A DNA stretch of 64,000 nt, taken from an uncultured Halanaerobiales bacterium (GTDB lineage Bacteria; Bacillota; Halanaerobiia; Halanaerobiales; M55B127). Of the stretch, positions 2,493-14,874 are shown piece after piece (within the stretch, counting starts at the first letter, position 1; every line of letters starts with the position of its first letter). The stretch covers positions 7,178 through 71,177 of the forward strand of contig CAJXKY010000004.1 in NCBI GenBank assembly GCA_913055675.1, given 5' to 3'. Position numbers and translations under genes: made by a program. Under the pieces are notes generated by a model that worked only from the letters and a program-made list of their open reading frames with translations, was not told where the DNA came from and searched no databases.

Positions 2493-3878
2493 ATGGATGA
2501 ATTATATAACATAGATCAAGCAATGGAAATAGATAGAACTGAAGTGGCAGCAAATTATAAAAATCATATAAATCCCAGTATGGTTAAGATGCTTCAGTTA
2601 ATGAATTTTGATAAGAATTTTGTAAAAGCAGATAATGTAACTGTAACTGATGAAAAAGGAAAAGAATATTTAGATTTTTTAGGTGGTTATGGTTCTTTAA
2701 ATATGGGACATAATAGAAAAGAAATTATTGAAGCAGTTCATAAAGTACGAGAAAGGCCTAATTTATTACAGGCTTCTTTGGGTGGGATCTACAGTGCTGC
2801 TGCTCATAATTTAGCTCAGGTAGCTCCTGGAGATCTTGAAATAAGTTTTTTTGGTAACAGTGGAACCGAAGCAGTAGAAGGTGCAATTAAATTATCAAGA
2901 ATTGCTACTGGGAAAGAAAAGATCATTTATTGTAAAGATTCTTTTCATGGGAAAAGTTATGGATCTTTATCTATAACAGGAAGAGAGAAATATCAAAAAT
3001 ATTTTAACCCCCTTTTGCCAGCAACTGAATCAATTCCTTTTGGTGATATTCCAGCTCTAAAAGAGAAGTTGAACAGTAGCGAGAATATTGCATCTGTGAT
3101 ACTGGAACCTATCCAAGGTGAAGGAGGAGTAGTAGTACCTCCAAACGGGTATCTAAAAGAGGTTAGGGAATTGTGTGATAAACATGGAGTATTGATGATT
3201 TTAGATGAAATACAAACTGGACTAGGACGGACAGGGGAAATGTTTGCATGTAACCATGAAAATGTTGTACCAGATATTATGTGTTTAGCAAAATCTATGG
3301 GTGGAGGAATAGAGCCTGTCGGAGCATATATTACAAAACCAGAGATTTGGAATAAGGCCTATGGTAGTATGGAAAAAGCACTCTTACATACTTCTACCTT
3401 TGGTGGTAATGCCAGGGCTTCTGCTGCAGTAATTGCTTCTTTGAATTATATTATCAAAAAAGAGTTAAGTAGAGAAGCTGAAGAAAAAGGCAAGTATTTT
3501 TTAGATAAATTGAAAAGTTTTGAAGATGAATACAAATTAGTTAAGGAAGTTAGAGGAAAAGGGTTATTAATTGGTATAGAGTTTAATCAACCAGATCCCG
3601 GTATATTTGATCAACTCTCCGGCGGATTAGTTAGTAAATTTTCGGCTGAATATTTGGGAGCAATGGTGGCAGGAACTTTAAATAATGATTATCAAATAAT
3701 TACAGCCTATACTTTAAATAATCCTAATGTGATCAGATTAGAACCACCCCTTACAGTAAGTTATGAACAAATTGATTATGTAATAAATTCCTTAAATCAG
3801 ATATTTCAAAATAATAGTGGGTTATTTAATTTAACAATGAAAAGTGCTTCAACCGCTATCAAAAATTTTTTTCAGTAA
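2493..3878 (+). CDS. Class-III (acetylornithine/putrescine-type) PLP aminotransferase
   Basis: 461 aa, RBS AGGGAGG. Motifs GNSGTEAVEGAIKL, DEIQTGLGRTGEMFA and PLP-lysine context CLAKSMGGG. Confidence 0.85.
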   Translation: MDELYNIDQAMEIDRTEVAANYKNHINPSMVKMLQLMNFDKNFVKADNVTVTDEKGKEYLDFLGGYGSLNMGHNRKEIIEAVHKVRERPNLLQASLGGIYSAAAHNLAQVAPGDLEISFFGNSGTEAVEGAIKLSRIATGKEKIIYCKDSFHGKSYGSLSITGREKYQKYFNPLLPATESIPFGDIPALKEKLNSSENIASVILEPIQGEGGVVVPPNGYLKEVRELCDKHGVLMILDEIQTGLGRTGEMFACNHENVVPDIMCLAKSMGGGIEPVGAYITKPEIWNKAYGSMEKALLHTSTFGGNARASAAVIASLNYIIKKELSREAEEKGKYFLDKLKSFEDEYKLVKEVRGKGLLIGIEFNQPDPGIFDQLSGGLVSKFSAEYLGAMVAGTLNNDYQIITAYTLNNPNVIRLEPPLTVSYEQIDYVINSLNQIFQNNSGLFNLTMKSASTAIKNFFQ

Positions 3879-3914
3879 GGATTAATAGTAAAAAATTAAT
3901 AATATGTTAAAGAG

Positions 3915-3943
3915 CGGCAGGGGGACCTGTCGTTAATTTTTTT
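3915..3943 (+). terminator. Rho-independent terminator after the aminotransferase gene
   Basis: Stem CGGCAGG / CCTGTCG (one G-U pair), loop GGGA, followed by TTAATTTTTTT. Confidence 0.5.
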
Positions 3944-4048
3944 CATATAAATGTAAATATTTTCTATAAAAAAGAAGGATTTACCAATAGTCATCTCAAA
4001 TGTGTTATAGTGTGGCAAATATAAAATACTATAACAGGAGTGTATTAA

Positions 4049-6475
4049 TTGATTAAACAACACAGTAAATTCATATTATTTTTACTAGTCTTGATACTTT
4101 TATTTATTCCAGTAATTACAGTAGAGGCACAATATTCTACCGGTTATCTTGATTTTGATTTTTATAATTTGAATAGCAAAAAGTTCCGGATAAATACTGA
4201 TTATTCATTTTTTCTAAAGAATGAGACTAAAAACAATCTATCTTATACTCTCAAATATGACAAGAACCAGAATATTGATTACAAGTTTAAAAAGGAGCAC
4301 TTTTGGCTTGACCGTTCAATTTTACTGAAGGATTTCAGTGGACAGAGTAAATATCTGAAATTAAAATATGATAATTCAAATTTGATTTATGGTAGATATC
4401 AATTTCAGATTGATTCAACAATGTTTTCGAATTATTATTATAATAATTTAGATGGAGTGAAATTTACTCATGAGAATGATAAGCGAAGTGCTAATGTTTT
4501 CATAAGTAGAATGGGGCAAGTTTCAATTACGGATAGAATCTTTAATCCAAGTTATTCAGTTATCTTTTTAAATAATGATAAAATTATACGAGAATCTGAA
4601 ATGGTCTATGTGAATACATTAAATAAAGATAATGAAGTATTAAGAACAAATTATCTTAGAAAAAAGTTACACTATAAAATAGATTATTTAAAAGGTAAAG
4701 TTACATTTAAACCATTAATATATTTTTTGAATCAGCCCGAGTATAATTATGAATTGATTATAAATTATAAAATTAAGGAGTCTGGATTCAAATATCTAAA
4801 CCGGGGATATAATTTAAAAACAAAACTAACTTCTAATACAAGTTTGAAGATATATGAAGTAAATGAGCAAAGTCAAAAAAATATTAAAGGTATGGTATTA
4901 TCTTTTAAACCTAAGAGACGTGACTATTATGAATTGGAATACCAACAAGAGCAAGAAAACAATAAAAAAGTAAATATAAGTAATGATAATGGTGGCCATT
5001 ATTTACAAAATATAATAAAGAATAGTAAAACAGATAAAATGGGGATTAGATATTTCAATGAAATAAATTCAAACAATAAAATACAGGGACATAGTTACAA
5101 ATTTATTATTAATTCCCCTTACTTTGGAAAATTAGATGAGTTTGAACATTTCATAAAATACAATAGTAATTTAAATGAAAATATAAGAACTGAAATTATT
5201 TACCGAAGTTTAGATAACGATCAAAAGCATAGTTATGATCATTATCAGACGAATTTAATTAATCAAATCAATGAAAAACTAATCTTGAAGACAAGTTTTA
5301 AATATATAAATGGAACTTCAGGTATTACAAAAGAAAAAAGCCTGAGTAATTTTTTTGAATATAAATATTCAGAAAATTTAGACATATCCTGGGGCTATTT
5401 ACATAATATGCCAAGAGAACTCTATTATGGACAATATGTAATCAGGTATAAGCCTAAAAATAATAGTCATATCATATTTAGTAATCAAGTTAAGGATACT
5501 GATTATAGGGTGAAAAGATTTGAATATAAAATGGACAATGATTTTAAGATCTTTAAGACAATTCAAGAAACTCTATCAGATAAGAGTATAGTTAACAAAA
5601 ATAATGGTTTGAAGTATAGAATAAATAATGAAAATACCATTTCATTTATTAATTCAACCCATCAAGAGGAGGTGAATGGTAAGGAAAATATAGTTAAGTA
5701 TAAATTTGATTTTAATAAAACCATTTCAGCTGGTTTAAACCAGAGAACTTATTACACTAATTTAAATGGAGCTCTTCAAAAAAAGAAAAGAGGAACTAAA
5801 ATATATTTAAACTTAAAAAAGAAAGGAAATACATTTGAGGGTAGTTTTGATAAGGAGCGGAATATTACTAATACTTTTAAGAAAGAAAGACTAAAAGTTT
5901 CCTATCATAATAGAAATATTTCAAAATTTTATTTTTTTACTGGTATTGAAAAAGAATTTAAAAAAGAGAAAGCTCAAAATATTATTGTTAAATATAGTAA
6001 CCTCCGTTTTAAAATCAAATACCGCCCCTTTAATAATAAGAACAATTTAAGTTATAGTTATCTAAAACAGAATTCATACACTAAAAATTTAAATATAAGT
6101 AATGAGGAAAATACTGTTAACCAAACCTTAGACTTTTCTTATTTTTTTAATACGAAGTTATCATTAAATACTTCCTATAGTAAATGGGAGCGAACTTTAA
6201 AGAAAAACCAACAAAATATTTCTAATGTGTTTTCATTAAAAAGATTGGGATTGAAATATAGATACAAAAAGAGATGGACTTTTAAAGGAGAGTACAGAAT
6301 ATTAGATAAAACTAGAGAAAAAAGTGATAGTGGATATTTGATTTCTATCCAAAAGCATATAAACAAAAAATTATCACTAGGAATAGAATATAATTTTACT
6401 GATTTCAATAATAATCTTAATAATTTGAGTTATGATAACAATGGATTGTCTTTTAATATAAATTACAAATGGTAA
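4049..6475 (+). CDS. Large outer-membrane beta-barrel-like protein, family not recognised
   Basis: 808 aa, TTG start with RBS ACAGGAG. Signal peptide MIKQHSKFILFLLVLILLFIPVITVEAQ. Asn/Lys/Tyr-rich with alternating-residue stretches; ends GLSFNINYKW (aromatic C-terminus typical of BAM substrates). Confidence 0.6.
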   Translation: MIKQHSKFILFLLVLILLFIPVITVEAQYSTGYLDFDFYNLNSKKFRINTDYSFFLKNETKNNLSYTLKYDKNQNIDYKFKKEHFWLDRSILLKDFSGQSKYLKLKYDNSNLIYGRYQFQIDSTMFSNYYYNNLDGVKFTHENDKRSANVFISRMGQVSITDRIFNPSYSVIFLNNDKIIRESEMVYVNTLNKDNEVLRTNYLRKKLHYKIDYLKGKVTFKPLIYFLNQPEYNYELIINYKIKESGFKYLNRGYNLKTKLTSNTSLKIYEVNEQSQKNIKGMVLSFKPKRRDYYELEYQQEQENNKKVNISNDNGGHYLQNIIKNSKTDKMGIRYFNEINSNNKIQGHSYKFIINSPYFGKLDEFEHFIKYNSNLNENIRTEIIYRSLDNDQKHSYDHYQTNLINQINEKLILKTSFKYINGTSGITKEKSLSNFFEYKYSENLDISWGYLHNMPRELYYGQYVIRYKPKNNSHIIFSNQVKDTDYRVKRFEYKMDNDFKIFKTIQETLSDKSIVNKNNGLKYRINNENTISFINSTHQEEVNGKENIVKYKFDFNKTISAGLNQRTYYTNLNGALQKKKRGTKIYLNLKKKGNTFEGSFDKERNITNTFKKERLKVSYHNRNISKFYFFTGIEKEFKKEKAQNIIVKYSNLRFKIKYRPFNNKNNLSYSYLKQNSYTKNLNISNEENTVNQTLDFSYFFNTKLSLNTSYSKWERTLKKNQQNISNVFSLKRLGLKYRYKKRWTFKGEYRILDKTREKSDSGYLISIQKHINKKLSLGIEYNFTDFNNNLNNLSYDNNGLSFNINYKW

Positions 6476-6492
6476 AGGAAAGGTGTATTTAA

Positions 6493-7872
6493 ATGCAATT
6501 AATCAAAAAAATAATAAAATACTTAATTTTAATCAATATAATATTTATTCTTTTTTCCAACCCTGTCTTAAGCAGTAATTATTTAGATTTGGGAACTTTT
6601 GAGGTTATGAATGGAGGTTATTGGGCATTAGAAGGAAATAATACCTCTGTAATACAGGTTGATAAAGATGACAATGAACTATTTTATCTAACTCCACAGA
6701 ATATAATTAATAAAGTAATCACGGGTAAAATAAAAGTTTCAAGCTTTACTTATGATAATGATGCTTTCGGTTTAACGTTTGGATACCAAGGAATAAATGA
6801 TACTTATTTATGGTCCTGGGATGCTGGAGGTGTGCATGGAAATGAAGGACATATATTTTATAAAAAAGAAAAACTAGTTAGTCATGATGTTATTCCAGGA
6901 GAAATATTATATGATGGGAGAGCAATAGGGAAAGCCTGGGAGAAGGAAAAAGAATATAATTTCAAAGTGACTTATCTTGAAAACTATTTTAAGTTAGAAA
7001 TAAATAATAAAAAAATATTTGAAGTAAAAAATAACTTTCCCAAAGGAAGATTTGGTTTCTATTGTTTTTCTCAGGATATGATATATTTTTCAAATATTGA
7101 AATCAAAAATGGTGAACACTTATTAAAACCAAGTCTTGAGGATTTAGAAGAACCTATTGAAATAAAAGGTTACATTGATAAAACCGATAATAATTTATTT
7201 GATATAATAAGTGCTAATTACCAAATAAAAAACAATTCGGAATATGATATTGAAGATTTATATATTTCTCTATATATTGATCCTGAATTAAAGTTATTAA
7301 TAGACAGTATCAATATTAAGCAAAGTACCTATGATTTGAAATATAATAAAGCCAATAATGAATACAAGTTAAGTGGTATTACACTTGACTCTCAAGAAAG
7401 TATTTATTTAAATTATTTTCTTGAAAAAAGAAATCCGATTGTTAAAAAAGAGCAATATTTAAATAAAATACTAGTAAAAAGTTCGAAAAAAGATATTCTT
7501 TTATCTAATTCTATAAAGTCCGAAATAGAATTTAATGATGTAAATAATATCTTGAATGCTGAGATAGTTGGAAGGGTAAATATTGATAAAAATGCATCGT
7601 CTTTGAATTTGAAAGAAGAAGATATTAAATTCAAAATAGTAACTTCTGACGGGAGATTGATTCAGGTTGATAAAAATGGGAAATACCATTTAACAGTTAA
7701 TAAATTTAATGGATTATTTGAAAAAGAGACTATAGTATTGAAATTGATTGTACCAAAAATGTATAATAAATATAGGTTTAAAGGCGAAAAAATAAAATTA
7801 ATAAAAATAAGTCCGGGGTCTTATATTAAACAGGATTTCAATCTATATATAGGAGGTAAGGTAAATGGTTAA
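6493..7872 (+). CDS. Exported protein with N-terminal thrombospondin C-terminal (TSP_C)/L-lectin-like domain and beta-sandwich-like C-terminal region
   Basis: 459 aa, RBS AAAGGTG. Signal peptide ...ILFSNPVLSS. YDNDAFGLTFGYQGINDTYLWSW and KGRFGFYCFSQDMIYFSNIEI resemble TSP-1 [22 protein letters not shown] and [21 protein letters not shown] (recalled alignment). Confidence 0.6.
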   Translation: MQLIKKIIKYLILINIIFILFSNPVLSSNYLDLGTFEVMNGGYWALEGNNTSVIQVDKDDNELFYLTPQNIINKVITGKIKVSSFTYDNDAFGLTFGYQGINDTYLWSWDAGGVHGNEGHIFYKKEKLVSHDVIPGEILYDGRAIGKAWEKEKEYNFKVTYLENYFKLEINNKKIFEVKNNFPKGRFGFYCFSQDMIYFSNIEIKNGEHLLKPSLEDLEEPIEIKGYIDKTDNNLFDIISANYQIKNNSEYDIEDLYISLYIDPELKLLIDSINIKQSTYDLKYNKANNEYKLSGITLDSQESIYLNYFLEKRNPIVKKEQYLNKILVKSSKKDILLSNSIKSEIEFNDVNNILNAEIVGRVNIDKNASSLNLKEEDIKFKIVTSDGRLIQVDKNGKYHLTVNKFNGLFEKETIVLKLIVPKMYNKYRFKGEKIKLIKISPGSYIKQDFNLYIGGKVNG

Positions 7873-8566
7873 TGACTTTTCAGTTGAAGAATATATTGAT
7901 AAATTAGAAGATATTTTTAATAAACATGCTGACAAAGATAATGCAGTTCAAATGGAAAAGTATATGAGAAACAAATTTGATTTTTATGGATTACATGCAA
8001 AACAACGAAGGGAATTAAGTAGACACCTCCAGAAATTAGATAATAGGCCCCCACATTCACAGTTGAGTCAGGTGATTATAAAATTATGGTCTAAAGATAA
8101 AAGAGAATTACATTATTTTGCTATGGAATTATTTGAAAGATTTAAAAAAGATTTTAGAATCGGAGATATTAAATTAATGGTTTATATGATTGAAAACAAA
8201 TCCTGGTGGGATACAGTTGACTTCATTTCAAAAAAACTTGTTGGAGAATATTTTAAAACCTATCCTCAATTTAGAGATGAGTTTAATACCAAATGGCTCA
8301 AGTCAAATAATATTTGGTTACAGAGAACAGCTCTTTTGTTTCAATTAAATTATAAAGAAGAAACTGATTCAAAATTATTATTTAACAATATAAATAAGTT
8401 AAAAGATATAGATGAGTTCTTTATTCAAAAAGCTATTGGCTGGTCTTTAAGAGAGTATTCAAGAACTGCTCCAAAAAAAGTAGAGAAGTTTATAGTTAAT
8501 AATGAGTTATCTAGTTTAAGTACTAGAGAGGGACTTAAAGTTATTAAAAAAGCCAAAAGTAATTAA
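7865..8566 (+). CDS. DNA alkylation repair protein (AlkD/AlkC-like HEAT-repeat glycosylase family)
   Basis: 233 aa, RBS AGGAGG; start overlaps the upstream stop by 8 nt. N-terminal pattern NAVQMEKYMRNKFDFYGLHAKQRREL and WWDTVD are typical of the DNA_alkylation family. Confidence 0.75.
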   Translation: MVNDFSVEEYIDKLEDIFNKHADKDNAVQMEKYMRNKFDFYGLHAKQRRELSRHLQKLDNRPPHSQLSQVIIKLWSKDKRELHYFAMELFERFKKDFRIGDIKLMVYMIENKSWWDTVDFISKKLVGEYFKTYPQFRDEFNTKWLKSNNIWLQRTALLFQLNYKEETDSKLLFNNINKLKDIDEFFIQKAIGWSLREYSRTAPKKVEKFIVNNELSSLSTREGLKVIKKAKSN

Positions 8567-8680
8567 AAGAAGGTAAATTGATTTACTTTTGTTATATAAC
8601 TCAGGACTATATAAGCAGGAAATATTGCAGAAAAATTAAATTATATAAATAATCAGTAAGATTATTTGGGAGATGAAGGT

Positions 8681-9679
8681 ATGAATTCTTATGAGAGAGT
8701 ATTTAAAAGATTAGAGGGTAAAGAAGTAGATAAAATACCTAATTTAAATATTATTATGACTTTTGCAGCTAAATTTATAGATGTTCCTTATAGTAAATAT
8801 GTTAGGGATTATAGGTATCTTGTAGAAGGTAATATAAAATGTTGTGAAGAATTTGGAATAGATATGGTAAGTGCGATCTCAGATCCATGTCGTGAGGGAC
8901 ATGATATGGGAGCTAAAATTAAATTACCACATGATGACGTTCCCTATTTTGATGGTAATCTAATTGTTGATTATAAACAATTAGATTCATTAAATATTGT
9001 TGCTCCTAGGCAAGGTGAACGAATGTTAGATCGAATTAAGGCAGTTGAACTCTTCAAAAGAAAAGTAGGAGGTACTTATCCAATTTTAGGTTGGGTAGAA
9101 GGATCTTTTGCTGAGGCTTGTGATCTAAGAGGGATGCATCAAACAATGCTTGATATTTATGAAAATCCAGAAAACTTAGAACAATTATTAGAAATATGTA
9201 CTGAACAGGCAATTTGTTTTGCTGAAGAACAGGTTAAGGCAGGAGCAGATTTTATAGGGATTGGGGATGCAGCAGCTTCCTTAATCGGTCCCGCAAACTA
9301 TAATAAATTTGTTTTTCCCTATGAAAAAAGAATAATAAATGCTGTACATGAACTTGATGCCAAAGTTAAATTACATATCTGTGGAAATATTAATCCCATT
9401 TTAGAACAAATAGTAGAAACTAAAAGTGATATTATTGATCTAGACTGGATGGTTGATTTTAAAAAGGCTATAGAAATATTTGAGGATAAAACATCTGCAA
9501 ATGGTAATTTTGACCCAGTAGATATTTTAATGCGAGGGACGGCTGAGAAAGTAAAAAACGAAGTGAAAAAATGTGTAGAAATAGGAAACAAGACTACCTT
9601 TATATCAGCTGGATGTGAAGTTCCAGCCAGTACTCCTTATGATAATATGTATGCTGTAAATGGACCTTTATATCAATAG
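8681..9679 (+). CDS. Uroporphyrinogen decarboxylase (URO-D) family protein, MtaA/CmuA-like methyltransferase type
   Basis: ATG at 8681 with GGGAGA 7 nt upstream (track start 8666 is a TTG inside the RBS). MNSYERVFKRLEGKEVDKIP..., IGIGDAAASLIGP and HICGN are typical of the family. Confidence 0.7.
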   Translation: MNSYERVFKRLEGKEVDKIPNLNIIMTFAAKFIDVPYSKYVRDYRYLVEGNIKCCEEFGIDMVSAISDPCREGHDMGAKIKLPHDDVPYFDGNLIVDYKQLDSLNIVAPRQGERMLDRIKAVELFKRKVGGTYPILGWVEGSFAEACDLRGMHQTMLDIYENPENLEQLLEICTEQAICFAEEQVKAGADFIGIGDAAASLIGPANYNKFVFPYEKRIINAVHELDAKVKLHICGNINPILEQIVETKSDIIDLDWMVDFKKAIEIFEDKTSANGNFDPVDILMRGTAEKVKNEVKKCVEIGNKTTFISAGCEVPASTPYDNMYAVNGPLYQ

Positions 9680-11524: not shown

Positions 11525-11848
11525 ATGATAAATAATGTAGTGCTGACTGGACGATTGGTAAGAAAGCCTGAATTAAAAGAATCAGAAGAAGGAGTTGATT
11601 ATTGCACATTTACCCTTGCAGTTCAGAGAAATTATCGCCGCAAAGATGGTGAAATTGAAACTGACTTTATAGATGTGGTTAACTGGGGGCCAGGAGCAAA
11701 ACGCTGTAGTAAGTATTTAAAAAAAGGAAAACTAGCGGGAGTCGAAGGTATGGTAAGTACATATACCATTGAAAAAGAAGATAAAAAATATAAAAACTAT
11801 CGGGTTAAAGCAAGAAGGGTACAATTTTTAGAATGGCCGGATAAGTAA
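11525..11848 (+). CDS. Short single-stranded DNA-binding protein paralog lacking the C-terminal acidic tail
   Basis: 107 aa, RBS AAAGGAG. OB-fold signature NNVVLTGRLVRKPELKESEEG...FIDVVNWG. Ends QFLEWPDK, with no Gly/Pro-rich linker and no D-x-P-F tip. Confidence 0.8.
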   Translation: MINNVVLTGRLVRKPELKESEEGVDYCTFTLAVQRNYRRKDGEIETDFIDVVNWGPGAKRCSKYLKKGKLAGVEGMVSTYTIEKEDKKYKNYRVKARRVQFLEWPDK

Positions 11849-12560: not shown

Positions 12561-12837
12561 AGCTTAAAAATAATGTTAAAAGTGTAATTTTTTAAGTTTA
12601 TTGTTTCTTTAAAAATTTTTGTATACTAAATATGATAGCTATTAAATACAATCATTTCATGCAAAGGGATAGAAAAGAAAATTGGAATAGAAAGAAAAAT
12701 ACTTTAATAATCGTAAATAAACTGCTTTTTTAAACACTATAAAGTATCCGGTTAACGTCCCAAAACTGATTCGAAATAGTTCATTTCCCCCAGAAATATA
12801 TGCAGTTTTAATGTGTGATTATTATGGAGTGATCTGT

Positions 12838-14874
12838 TTGAAAAATAAAAACATCTATTTTGTTATATTTTTAATAGCCTTTCTTTTATTAACAACAACT
12901 TTACATGCAGAAAACTTTTCGACTTCTTTAAAAAATTTTGTATCCAATGGTAAAAAAGTTCAGATCAAATTATATAATGGACAATCAGATCTGAGAATAT
13001 TTACAGGTACTAATGTTGAAATTAGTAATTTAGATAAATCAAAACGTACCTTTCTAGCAAAAAACAAAGAATATATTATAGAACCATATGTAAAAGGACA
13101 GCCCGTTTGGTTTATACAAGTTTTTGCCACTGAAGAGCAGAATAAGGCTGAAAACATTAAAGAGGATATTAAAAATAATTTTAGTGATTATGAAGTCCGG
13201 ATCAAATTGGTAGATGATTTATATAAAGTTCAAGTTGGAACCTTTAACGAAGAATTAGCTGCCGAAAAGGTTTCTCAAAACTTAAATAACGCCGGTTGGA
13301 AAACCTGGGTTATAGAAAGTGAAACTGGTGAAGAGTCTTCTCAATTAGTAGTTAAAGATAAGCAAGGTAATAATGTATTTGAAAACGGTACTATTTTTTG
13401 TGAAGGCGTTATTAGTTTGAGGGATAACTTATATAATGGGAAAATGCAGTTTAAATTAGAAGATGGAAAAATAGAAGTTTTAAATGAAATAGATTTTTTA
13501 ACATTAGAATATAGTTTACTTTTAGAAAACAAACCTGATACCAATAATTTAACTTTTTTGAAAACTGCAGCTGTACTTAACAGAAGTAGGGTTTTAAGTA
13601 AAATATTAAACGAAACAGCACCATATAAATTTCCCCAGTACCAAGGTATTTCGGGTTTGTCTGAAATTGTTAAAGTTGCTGTGGATAAAACCTCCGCAAA
13701 GGTGATATATAAAGATAATTCACTCTTTGATGGAACTGTTGATTTTAAAAAAGTAAATAGAAATCATAATACTTTTGAATCGGTATTGTTCAGTGAGTTT
13801 GATTCTATTGAAATTAGAGATTTAGATACTACTTTAGAAGAAACAAAATTAGTAGATTCTAATATTGATATTGGTTTAAAATATAAAGAGATTAGACAGT
13901 TAACCTGGAATGGTCCACGGGTCATAAGTATTGTTGATTTAAACACCTTGAAAGGTAGACATAAAGTTACTTCATTTATAAGCAATGATAAGATTGAGGG
14001 GCTGTCTTCGTTAGCTGATGTAGCGAATCAAAAAGGGGCATTAGTTGGAGTTAATGGTGGTTTTTATACTTCATCAGGCACTCCCTTAGGAATAGTAATG
14101 ATTGATGGTGTGATGGTTTCAGAACCTTTATATAATAGAGCTGCTTTAGGTATAACTAAAAGTGGTGAAATATTGATTGATAATGTGAAGTGGAGAGGAT
14201 TATTAAAAACCAAGAATAATAGCCACATCATTATTGATGCAGTCAATAGAAAACCTAATAATGATGGGGAAATAATATTATATAATAGTTTTTTTGGAGA
14301 AAGAACTCCTCAATTCAATCAATCTACTACAGAAATTGTAGTGGCTGAAAATAGGATATTAGAAGTTGATAAGGGAGAATTAATCAATAATTCTATTCCA
14401 AAAGAGGGGTTTGTAATAAAAATATTCAACAGCGATTCTGAATCATATTCATCTTTTGAGCCTGGTAAAGAAGTAGAATACAAAAATATATTCAGTCCTA
14501 ACTGGAATCAGGAAGATGTTGTAAGCATCATGGGAGGAGGCCCGAAACTGATTTCAGAGGGAGAAGTAACTGTGACTGGACAGGCCGAAAATTTCCAGTC
14601 GGATATCATTCAAGGCAGGGCTCCACGGACAGCTGTTGGTATTACTGAAGATGACCACTTACTATTTGTAATGGTCGATGGGCGTCAGCCAGAACTAAGT
14701 GTTGGTATAACACTTAATAATTTAGCCCAGTATTTAAAAAAATTAAATGTAAAAGAAGCCATGAATTTAGATGGCGGCGATTCTTCTCAATTGGTAATTA
14801 GAGGGTATACCTTTAATAGTCCTTCTGGTTATAGGGAAATCGGAACTGGAATTTTAATTAAAAAAGTAAATTAA
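12838..14874 (+). CDS. Envelope protein with SPOR domain and C-terminal phosphodiester glycosidase (NAGPA-like) domain
   Basis: TTG at 12838 with GGAGTG RBS gives signal peptide MKNKNIYFVIFLIAFLLLTTTLHA (track start is 12811). SPOR-like WFIQVFATEEQNKAE...LYKVQVGTF...AGWKTWVIE. NAGPA-like GGGPKLISEGEV, GRAPRTAVGI, LFVMVDGRQ and AMNLDGGDSSQL. Confidence 0.75.
   Translation: MKNKNIYFVIFLIAFLLLTTTLHAENFSTSLKNFVSNGKKVQIKLYNGQSDLRIFTGTNVEISNLDKSKRTFLAKNKEYIIEPYVKGQPVWFIQVFATEEQNKAENIKEDIKNNFSDYEVRIKLVDDLYKVQVGTFNEELAAEKVSQNLNNAGWKTWVIESETGEESSQLVVKDKQGNNVFENGTIFCEGVISLRDNLYNGKMQFKLEDGKIEVLNEIDFLTLEYSLLLENKPDTNNLTFLKTAAVLNRSRVLSKILNETAPYKFPQYQGISGLSEIVKVAVDKTSAKVIYKDNSLFDGTVDFKKVNRNHNTFESVLFSEFDSIEIRDLDTTLEETKLVDSNIDIGLKYKEIRQLTWNGPRVISIVDLNTLKGRHKVTSFISNDKIEGLSSLADVANQKGALVGVNGGFYTSSGTPLGIVMIDGVMVSEPLYNRAALGITKSGEILIDNVKWRGLLKTKNNSHIIIDAVNRKPNNDGEIILYNSFFGERTPQFNQSTTEIVVAENRILEVDKGELINNSIPKEGFVIKIFNSDSESYSSFEPGKEVEYKNIFSPNWNQEDVVSIMGGGPKLISEGEVTVTGQAENFQSDIIQGRAPRTAVGITEDDHLLFVMVDGRQPELSVGITLNNLAQYLKKLNVKEAMNLDGGDSSQLVIRGYTFNSPSGYREIGTGILIKKVN

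Follow-up and report, generated by a model that had tools for sequence, protein, structure and literature searches.

A predicted giant outer-membrane barrel and a lectin-headed partner encoded side by side in an uncultured Halanaerobiales bacterium form a candidate surface-display pair

We analysed two adjoining genes in a 64,000-nucleotide stretch of contig CAJXKY010000004.1 (assembly GCA_913055675.1, positions 7,178 to 71,177), which comes from an uncultured Halanaerobiales bacterium and is referred to here as the window. The first gene encodes an exported protein of 808 residues that is predicted to form a giant outer-membrane barrel, and the second an exported partner of 459 residues with a thrombospondin-like lectin head. 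We infer with moderate confidence that the pair is an outer-membrane module for Sec-dependent surface display or export, and it belongs to an apparently undescribed, widespread family of barrel-plus-adhesin gene pairs. Fusion of adhesin-type domains to the barrel in most representative relatives, adjacency of the two genes in the rest, and a C-terminal unit specific to the partners argue strongly for a physical or functional coupling of the two proteins. The features of the pair are:

4049 to 6475, plus strand: barrel gene, TTG start, 808 residues, no curated family
4049 to 4129, plus strand: signal peptide of the 808-residue protein (residues 1 to 27, ...VITVEA/QY, signal peptidase I type; A27 invariant in orthologues; helix at 2-19 in the model)
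4544 to 4738, plus strand: small domain inserted in the predicted barrel (residues about 166-230), inside the best-conserved superfamily segment
6443 to 6472, plus strand: beta-signal-like C-terminal strand GLSFNINYKW with an aromatic last residue
6493 to 7872, plus strand: partner gene, ATG start, 459 residues; signal peptide, lectin head and two immunoglobulin (Ig)-like stalk or anchor domains
6580 to 7110, plus strand: thrombospondin-C-terminal-like head, of the concanavalin A (ConA)-like or L-type-lectin-like kind (residues about 30-206; TSP_C, head-only profile)
7144 to 7527, plus strand: CLIPPER (DUF11)-like Ig-like domain (residues about 218-345)
7540 to 7848, plus strand: SdrD_B or CnaB-like domain (residues about 350-452), which with the CLIPPER-like domain makes up the C-terminal unit common to partners

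The two open reading frames lie 17 nucleotides apart, exactly as an earlier note on this DNA had placed them, and the composition that it had read by eye also proved correct: both proteins begin with signal peptides, the 808-residue protein is rich in Asn, Lys and Tyr (13.0%, 12.6% and 8.4%), and its C-terminus, ...GLSFNINYKW, is aromatic. The partner has a signal peptidase I-type signal peptide ending in ...PVLS/SN, with S27 invariant in orthologues.

Close homologues of the 808-residue protein form nine clusters among 5.8 billion proteins, and across 185,579 species genomes orthologues turned up only in five uncultured Halanaerobiales metagenome-assembled genomes (MAGs). An exhaustive search with the barrel profile returned 1,353 proteins at E ≤ 1e-3, of which 514 reach E ≤ 1e-10; a word-indexed homology search with a diverse barrel alignment (A3) returned almost only the known orthologues. 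The proteins of the distant relatives are 900 to 6,400 residues long and end with a barrel module of about 720-890 residues. Of the 142 top-ranking representatives that fall outside the orthologue clade, 116 are extended at the N-terminus (median 794 residues) and the other 26 stand alone. The scanned extensions of fused relatives hold DUF11/CLIPPER, SdrD_B, Calx-beta and OmpA domains, and Pfam finds head-DUF11-SdrD_B architectures among fused extensions. Of 121 relatives, 102 end in F, Y or W. Where a name has been deposited, it reads 'DUF11 domain-containing protein' for a Deltaproteobacteria MAG and for one of Oligosphaeraceae, 'OmpA family protein' for a Pseudomonadales MAG, and 'hypothetical protein' for Psychrilyobacter (Fusobacteria). 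Fifteen relatives (P0025, P0033, P0044, P0091, P0093 and ten others) have more than 60 residues past the barrel module, so that the barrel is not C-terminal in them; Pfam found no domain in P0025 or P0033. Furthermore, a 64%-identical partial barrel homologue (P0005) has been deposited as 'Nanoarchaeota archaeon' on a 2.7-kb contig, which is almost certainly a mis-binned Halanaerobiales contig.

As the earlier note's proposal of a gene pair implied, the order of the two genes and their spacing of about 17-18 nucleotides are kept, together with the flanking genes, in orthologous loci down to 35% identity (L001-L003), and the start positions of both genes are kept in all orthologues. The gene order in these loci is 2-hydroxyacid dehydrogenase, radical-SAM, aminotransferase, barrel, lectin protein and AlkD-like gene, with XdhC next after the AlkD-like gene where the contig continues (L001, L003). 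We also surveyed the neighbourhoods of nine relatives at about 17% identity. In all nine, a CLIPPER-type adhesin-like gene adjoins the barrel gene or lies one gene away on the same strand, and, going by the names in the records, this adjacency spans three or more further lineages. The adhesin-like gene is immediately downstream in seven of these loci, with products of 2,160 residues in L004, at least 1,645 in L006, at least 1,055 in L012, 2,472 in L013, 5,444 in L014, at least 728 in L015 and at least 2,580 in L017, and upstream in the remaining two (L016, L018). The domains of these adjoining proteins include CLIPPER, SdrD_B, Big_5, Big_9, He_PIG, LRR, cadherin and OmpA, and the L015 partner opens with a lectin head homologous to that of the window protein (E 3.7e-16). 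In the cultured Psychrilyobacter atlanticus (L018, KE384548.1), one gene of the cluster encodes an L-type-lectin plus CLIPPER protein, and directly beside the barrel gene lies one for a CLIPPER plus OmpA protein. About 3.9 kb between the lectin-CLIPPER gene and the CLIPPER-OmpA gene (L018 2976-6845) has no called plus-strand gene; another adhesin gene, a pseudogene or a fault in the assembly may account for this gap. The adjacency in all nine relatives, together with the fused relatives, lends strong comparative support to the surface-display, adhesion or export pair that the earlier note had suggested, which we keep as a conditional reading.

The C-terminal unit of the partner is what recurs among these adhesins. 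Two complete downstream partners (2,160 and 2,472 residues) end in a homologue of window residues 218-452 (E 1.6e-11 and 4e-11), and their internal CLIPPER domains do not match this unit. Similarly, positions 223-452 of the partner profile (A2) match fused extensions in P0055 (1e-11 to 2e-11), P0039 (9e-9) and P0161 (1e-8), and in about twenty more fused relatives at <1e-3. Pfam finds no direct match to DUF11 (PF01345) or SdrD_B (PF17210) in the window protein, and DUF11 is matched in one of nine orthologues (E 0.024). We identify the unit as CLIPPER-like plus SdrD_B-like because it is homologous to segments that Pfam does call in relatives: A2 positions 227-451 pair with P0055 620-840, where Pfam places DUF11 at 618-720 and SdrD_B at 755-822. 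In the AlphaFold2 model of the partner (nine sequences; predicted local distance difference test, pLDDT, 63 overall), the protein past the head is all-beta, with pLDDT of 80-90 in residues 220-350, and the Foldseek matches of the model include Cna, pilin and CLIPPER structures, among them CLIPPER PDB 9IFR.

The AlphaFold2 model of the 808-residue protein, made from a 32-sequence alignment, has a mean pLDDT of 82 and a predicted template-modelling score of 0.66, and shows about 42 long antiparallel strands, as counted in the DSSP string, which follow one another as an unbroken meander of beta-hairpins. The largest solved single-chain barrel has 36 strands. Foldseek against the PDB led to BtuB and other TonB-dependent transporters (TM-scores 0.17-0.19), MtrB, SlpA (the highest, 0.27-0.28), SprA (0.16-0.22) and LptD, with low TM-scores of 0.13-0.28 for all leading matches. 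No Pfam, NCBIfam or PDB sequence match was found apart from a sub-threshold one to OMP_b-brl (E about 1). Thus the 808-residue protein is predicted to be an outer-membrane barrel without a close solved counterpart, in line with the earlier note, which had proposed such a barrel and could attach no family name to it. Membership in the LptD, usher, TonB-dependent receptor, Omp85 or SprA families was considered and rejected, with no family match up to E 10 and TM-scores in the range given above. The best-conserved segment of the superfamily covers profile positions 86-221, with the motif ..SE.V.V....L....Y.IDYL.G.I.F; a likeness of the form ..SE.V.V..DY.IDY..G to SprA was considered, and no search supported it.

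The head of the partner appears, on profile comparison, to be homologous to the thrombospondin C-terminal L-type-lectin-like domain, and more generally to stand among ConA-like lectin domains. Pfam TSP_C (PF05735) matches the window protein with E 2.2e-5 and 24.8 bits against a cut-off of 25.6, over profile positions 131-195 only; it matches nine of nine orthologues, with a best E of 5.2e-8, and the identical protein P0010 has a precomputed PF05735.20 match. A head-only profile (A4) built from four orthologues and one distant partner was compared with the whole PDB, where it matched COMP (3fby, 1.3e-5), thrombospondin-2 (1yo8, 5.5e-5) and thrombospondin-1 (2.3e-4), and otherwise only the CBM66 module of levanase, more weakly. 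The alignment of A4 to thrombospondin-2 is one stretch, 44-204 against 432-621, and covers the whole lectin-like domain. These searches bear out the alignment to the metazoan domain that the earlier note had made by eye: HMMER pairs the same two segments, of 22 and 21 letters, with COMP (3fby), and TSP_C, the family that it had named, is matched in the window protein and its orthologues. The homologous head of the L015 partner also matches the 3keto-disac_hyd family, which we take to be ConA-like; the head thus sits between ConA-like families. TSP_C domains in bacteria are not new, since a published domain table assigns one to a secreted Ruminiclostridium cellulolyticum protein (PMC5256962).

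How the pair might work can be outlined as follows. Both proteins would cross the inner membrane by Sec, as the signal peptides read from their sequences indicate, and the 808-residue protein would form a barrel of about 40 strands in the outer membrane, as suggested by the predicted structure and the C-terminal beta-signal; the small conserved domain is inserted towards the N-terminal end of this barrel. The 459-residue partner would be a minimal fibrillar adhesin, in which the head probably binds a carbohydrate or another surface ligand and the CLIPPER-like plus SdrD_B-like unit serves as the barrel-proximal stalk or anchor. This unit would dock in or under the barrel, and the head would pass through the wide lumen to be exposed on the cell surface. 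We favour display because the adhesive domain lies distal to the anchor, which is the fibrillar-adhesin layout, because in the fused relatives the passenger precedes a C-terminal barrel, an arrangement shared with autotransporters, and because folded Ig-like domains could get through a lumen of these dimensions, as in SprA. In fibrillar adhesins, the usual layout sets a variable head at a distance from the conserved anchor unit (PMC8286594; 10.1101/2025.04.25.650565).

Several observations weigh against this proposal. Surface exposure and passage through the barrel are steps that we infer, and the strand count and the closure of the predicted barrel are taken from the DSSP string of the model. 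The AlphaFold2 model of the partner's head is poor (pLDDT 30-65): it is all-beta over residues 64-206 at low confidence (pLDDT 30-80), and the Foldseek matches of this low-confidence model include galectin and CBM66, so that the lectin fold is assigned from the profile evidence. The position of the CLIPPER isopeptide lysine is not conserved, being K225 in the window protein and S in most orthologues. Furthermore, the split pairs mostly have the barrel gene first (seven of nine), the reverse of the fused domain order, in which the adhesin is N-terminal; split and fused forms are therefore not simple fissions of one another, or the reverse. Finally, a peptidoglycan-binding domain of the OmpA type separates the Ig-like domains from the barrel in some relatives; it follows that at least part of the passenger stays periplasmic. 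This suggests that the barrel-proximal end is held at the peptidoglycan, which fits a threaded, anchored adhesin and also a periplasmic tether.

Such a tether or spacer of the envelope would have the barrel anchor periplasmic Ig-like stalks that join the outer membrane to the cell wall, in the manner of SlpA and OmpM of Terrabacteria, with the head binding peptidoglycan or a secondary cell-wall polymer. SlpA, a 30-strand barrel, indeed gives the top TM-scores, OmpA-type peptidoglycan-binding domains occur both in fused relatives and in adjacent partners, and diderm Firmicutes are reported to be without the classical tethers (PMC10628300). However, neither Pfam nor NCBIfam finds an SLH or OmpA domain in the window pair, partners reach 2,000-5,000 residues and bear LRR, cadherin, He_PIG, Big_5 and lectin heads of the kind usually found on extracellular adhesins, and the confinement of the orthologues to a few MAGs is unlike a core envelope function. 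We therefore regard a tether as unlikely.

A different division of labour, with a SusCD-like logic, would make the barrel a large porin or importer of a glycan or bulky nutrient and the lectin protein its substrate-capturing partner. TonB-dependent transporters are among the Foldseek matches, and the head has a carbohydrate-binding type of fold for which CBM66 is the sole non-thrombospondin match in the PDB. We consider this quite unlikely, since no TonB-dependent receptor or plug family matches at E up to 10, the conserved neighbourhood in L001-L003 contains no glycoside hydrolases or transporters, and the partner domains that relatives fuse to the barrel are adhesin stalk repeats and not binding lipoproteins. 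The two exported proteins could also be neighbours by chance and descent, with no physical or functional coupling between them. Adjacency within one small clade could be simple inheritance, and an unrelated DNA-repair gene is linked just as tightly; yet most of the 142 representatives carry homologous domains in fusion with the barrel, adjacency holds in all nine inspected relatives across at least three further lineages, and the partners share a conserved C-terminal unit, which makes chance adjacency very unlikely in our view.

Compared with known systems, the proposed display module most resembles type V secretion in layout. Like Va autotransporters and Vb two-partner systems, it would be Sec-dependent and dedicate an outer-membrane barrel to one adhesin-like passenger, which in most relatives lies N-terminal to a C-terminal barrel, or else in an adjacent gene, with the adhesive domain distal. 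However, type V barrels have 12 or 16 strands, and the Vb barrel is an Omp85 barrel with POTRA domains, whereas the barrel here has about 40 predicted strands and an inserted mini-domain, and its passengers are Ig-like CLIPPER/SdrD_B repeats and not beta-helices. No Autotransporter, Bac_surface_Ag, Omp85 or POTRA family matched the barrel, with E values up to 10 considered. SprA, the 36-strand translocon of the type IX secretion system (PDB 6H3I, 8GL6), is likewise a very large single-chain barrel that passes folded, Sec-exported surface proteins and adhesins. In contrast to SprA systems, the partner here has no type IX C-terminal sorting domain, the lineages named by the records of the retrieved relatives are not Bacteroidota, and the TM-score to SprA is only that given above. 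Pfam and NCBIfam found no SprA_N or TIGR04189 in the window protein or its relatives (SprA_N at E up to 10), nor did Pfam match TonB-dependent transporter plug or TonB_dep_Rec signatures at E up to 10.

Solan et al. (PNAS 2021; PMC8346858) used sequence data to predict a superfamily of barrels with 38 and 40 strands. It resembles the present family in consisting of predicted single barrels that are larger than any solved one and have no assigned function, some with non-membrane domains; it differs in that the searched text of that paper reports no link to adhesins. In the searchable literature, the barrel family described here, for which neither Pfam nor NCBIfam has an entry, is at most one of these unnamed predicted 38/40-strand families. 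The head shares profile-level homology across the whole domain with the C-terminal domain of thrombospondin and COMP (TSP_C, PF05735; PDB 1UX6, 1YO8, 3FBY), but it is bacterial, is not preceded by type-3 calcium-binding repeats and scores 0.8 bit under the Pfam cut-off. With the CLIPPER (DUF11) fibrillar adhesins (10.1101/2025.04.25.650565; PDB 9IFR) the partner shares a signal peptide, an adhesive head and an Ig-like stalk, and both CLIPPER and SdrD_B domains are found here among partners and fused relatives; unlike them, the window partner has one CLIPPER-like domain only and no conserved isopeptide lysine. The recent survey in which CLIPPER received its name mentions no outer-membrane barrel anchor ('outer membrane' and 'barrel' occur 0 times each; 10.1101/2025.04.25.650565), and no published link between a giant barrel and CLIPPER adhesins was found in the literature that could be searched. 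Tentatively, and with more doubt than attaches to the display reading of the pair itself, we hypothesize that these loci represent an undescribed secretion or display system, and so a new type, in several diderm lineages, in which a barrel of about 40 strands would export or anchor folded, Sec-delivered CLIPPER/SdrD_B fibrillar adhesins, fused or adjacent, with the C-terminal unit as docking signal.

The signals around the pair in the window, and the gene that follows it, are:

3913 to 3944, plus strand: terminator-like hairpin plus T-run, 3' of the aminotransferase gene; upstream boundary of the unit
4036 to 4040, plus strand: ribosome-binding-site-like AGGAG, 8 nucleotides 5' of the TTG of the 808-residue gene
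6480 to 6485, plus strand: ribosome-binding-site-like AAGGTG, 7 nucleotides 5' of the ATG of the 459-residue gene
7865 to 8566, plus strand: AlkD-like DNA_alkylation repair gene (Pfam DNA_alkylation, E 2.7e-56), with an 8-nucleotide overlap with the partner gene

Because the upstream hairpin follows the aminotransferase gene, the 808-residue gene starts a new unit. This hairpin is the sole terminator-like site in 3700-9000, and there is none within the pair. The ribosome-binding site that the earlier note had assigned to the partner gene is the AAGGTG listed above. Its claim that the two genes are co-transcribed agrees with the 17-nucleotide gap and the lack of a terminator in it, but the note overlooked the DNA_alkylation gene, which is probably in the same transcription unit, so that the unit would comprise three genes. 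The overlap with the AlkD-like gene (8-11 nucleotides) is also seen in the orthologous loci L001-L003. The AlkD-like gene has no evident functional link to the pair, and the tight coupling of a DNA-repair gene, with a cytoplasmic function, to a surface-protein operon is odd.

The stretch that holds the pair has a GC content of 0.247, compared with 0.320 for the whole window, and is the second-lowest among 301 sliding windows of 3.8 kb; the AT-richness relative to the flanks that the earlier note had noticed without computing it is therefore real. The GC content at third codon positions (GC3) of the two genes is 0.19-0.22, equal to the 0.17-0.25 of their neighbours. Phe, Ile, Asn, Lys and Tyr (FINKY) make up 46-49% of both proteins compared with 30-35% in neighbours, and the GC deficit lies at codon positions 1 and 2 because both proteins are FINKY-rich. 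We also considered a foreign AT-rich island, or recent transfer, and rejected it, as GC3 matches the neighbours and orthologues at 35% identity lie in the same housekeeping context.

Further observations concern the surroundings of the pair and of its distant counterparts. Same-strand two-component genes flank several of the distant cassettes (L013 2064-7835, L015 755-4898, L014 3745-7464, L016 12809-15164), with 7TMR-DISM or HisKA_7TM histidine kinases, a BTAD-domain response regulator and GGDEF among the types. This hints that expression of the distant cassettes may be signal-controlled; no such regulator lies next to the window pair. No paralogues of the pair were found within the window. 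The window also encodes a 687-residue exported protein (12811-14874) that may be another envelope protein; its counterpart in L001 has SPOR (weak) and NAGPA domains and is found a few genes downstream of the pair. In L003, from the closest named MAG (Tobar18m-G9), an RVT_1 reverse-transcriptase open reading frame (12633-13363) lies downstream of XdhC genes; the window has at the matching position an AT-rich gap followed by an SSB gene (11525-11848).

How long, folded, isopeptide-stabilised Ig-repeat adhesins cross the outer membrane in Gram-negative (diderm) bacteria is only partly understood. If our proposal is true, a barrel of about 40 strands fused to or beside such adhesins would supply the missing conduit or anchor, and the largest predicted class of outer-membrane barrels would gain a function. 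The Halanaerobiales pair is the smallest version seen here, with 808 plus 459 residues, one head and one stalk unit, and this compactness makes it a convenient model for structure prediction, electron cryo-microscopy and heterologous reconstitution. Outer-membrane proteins of diderm Firmicutes are sparsely catalogued, and the pair contributes a putative lineage-specific surface structure to that list.

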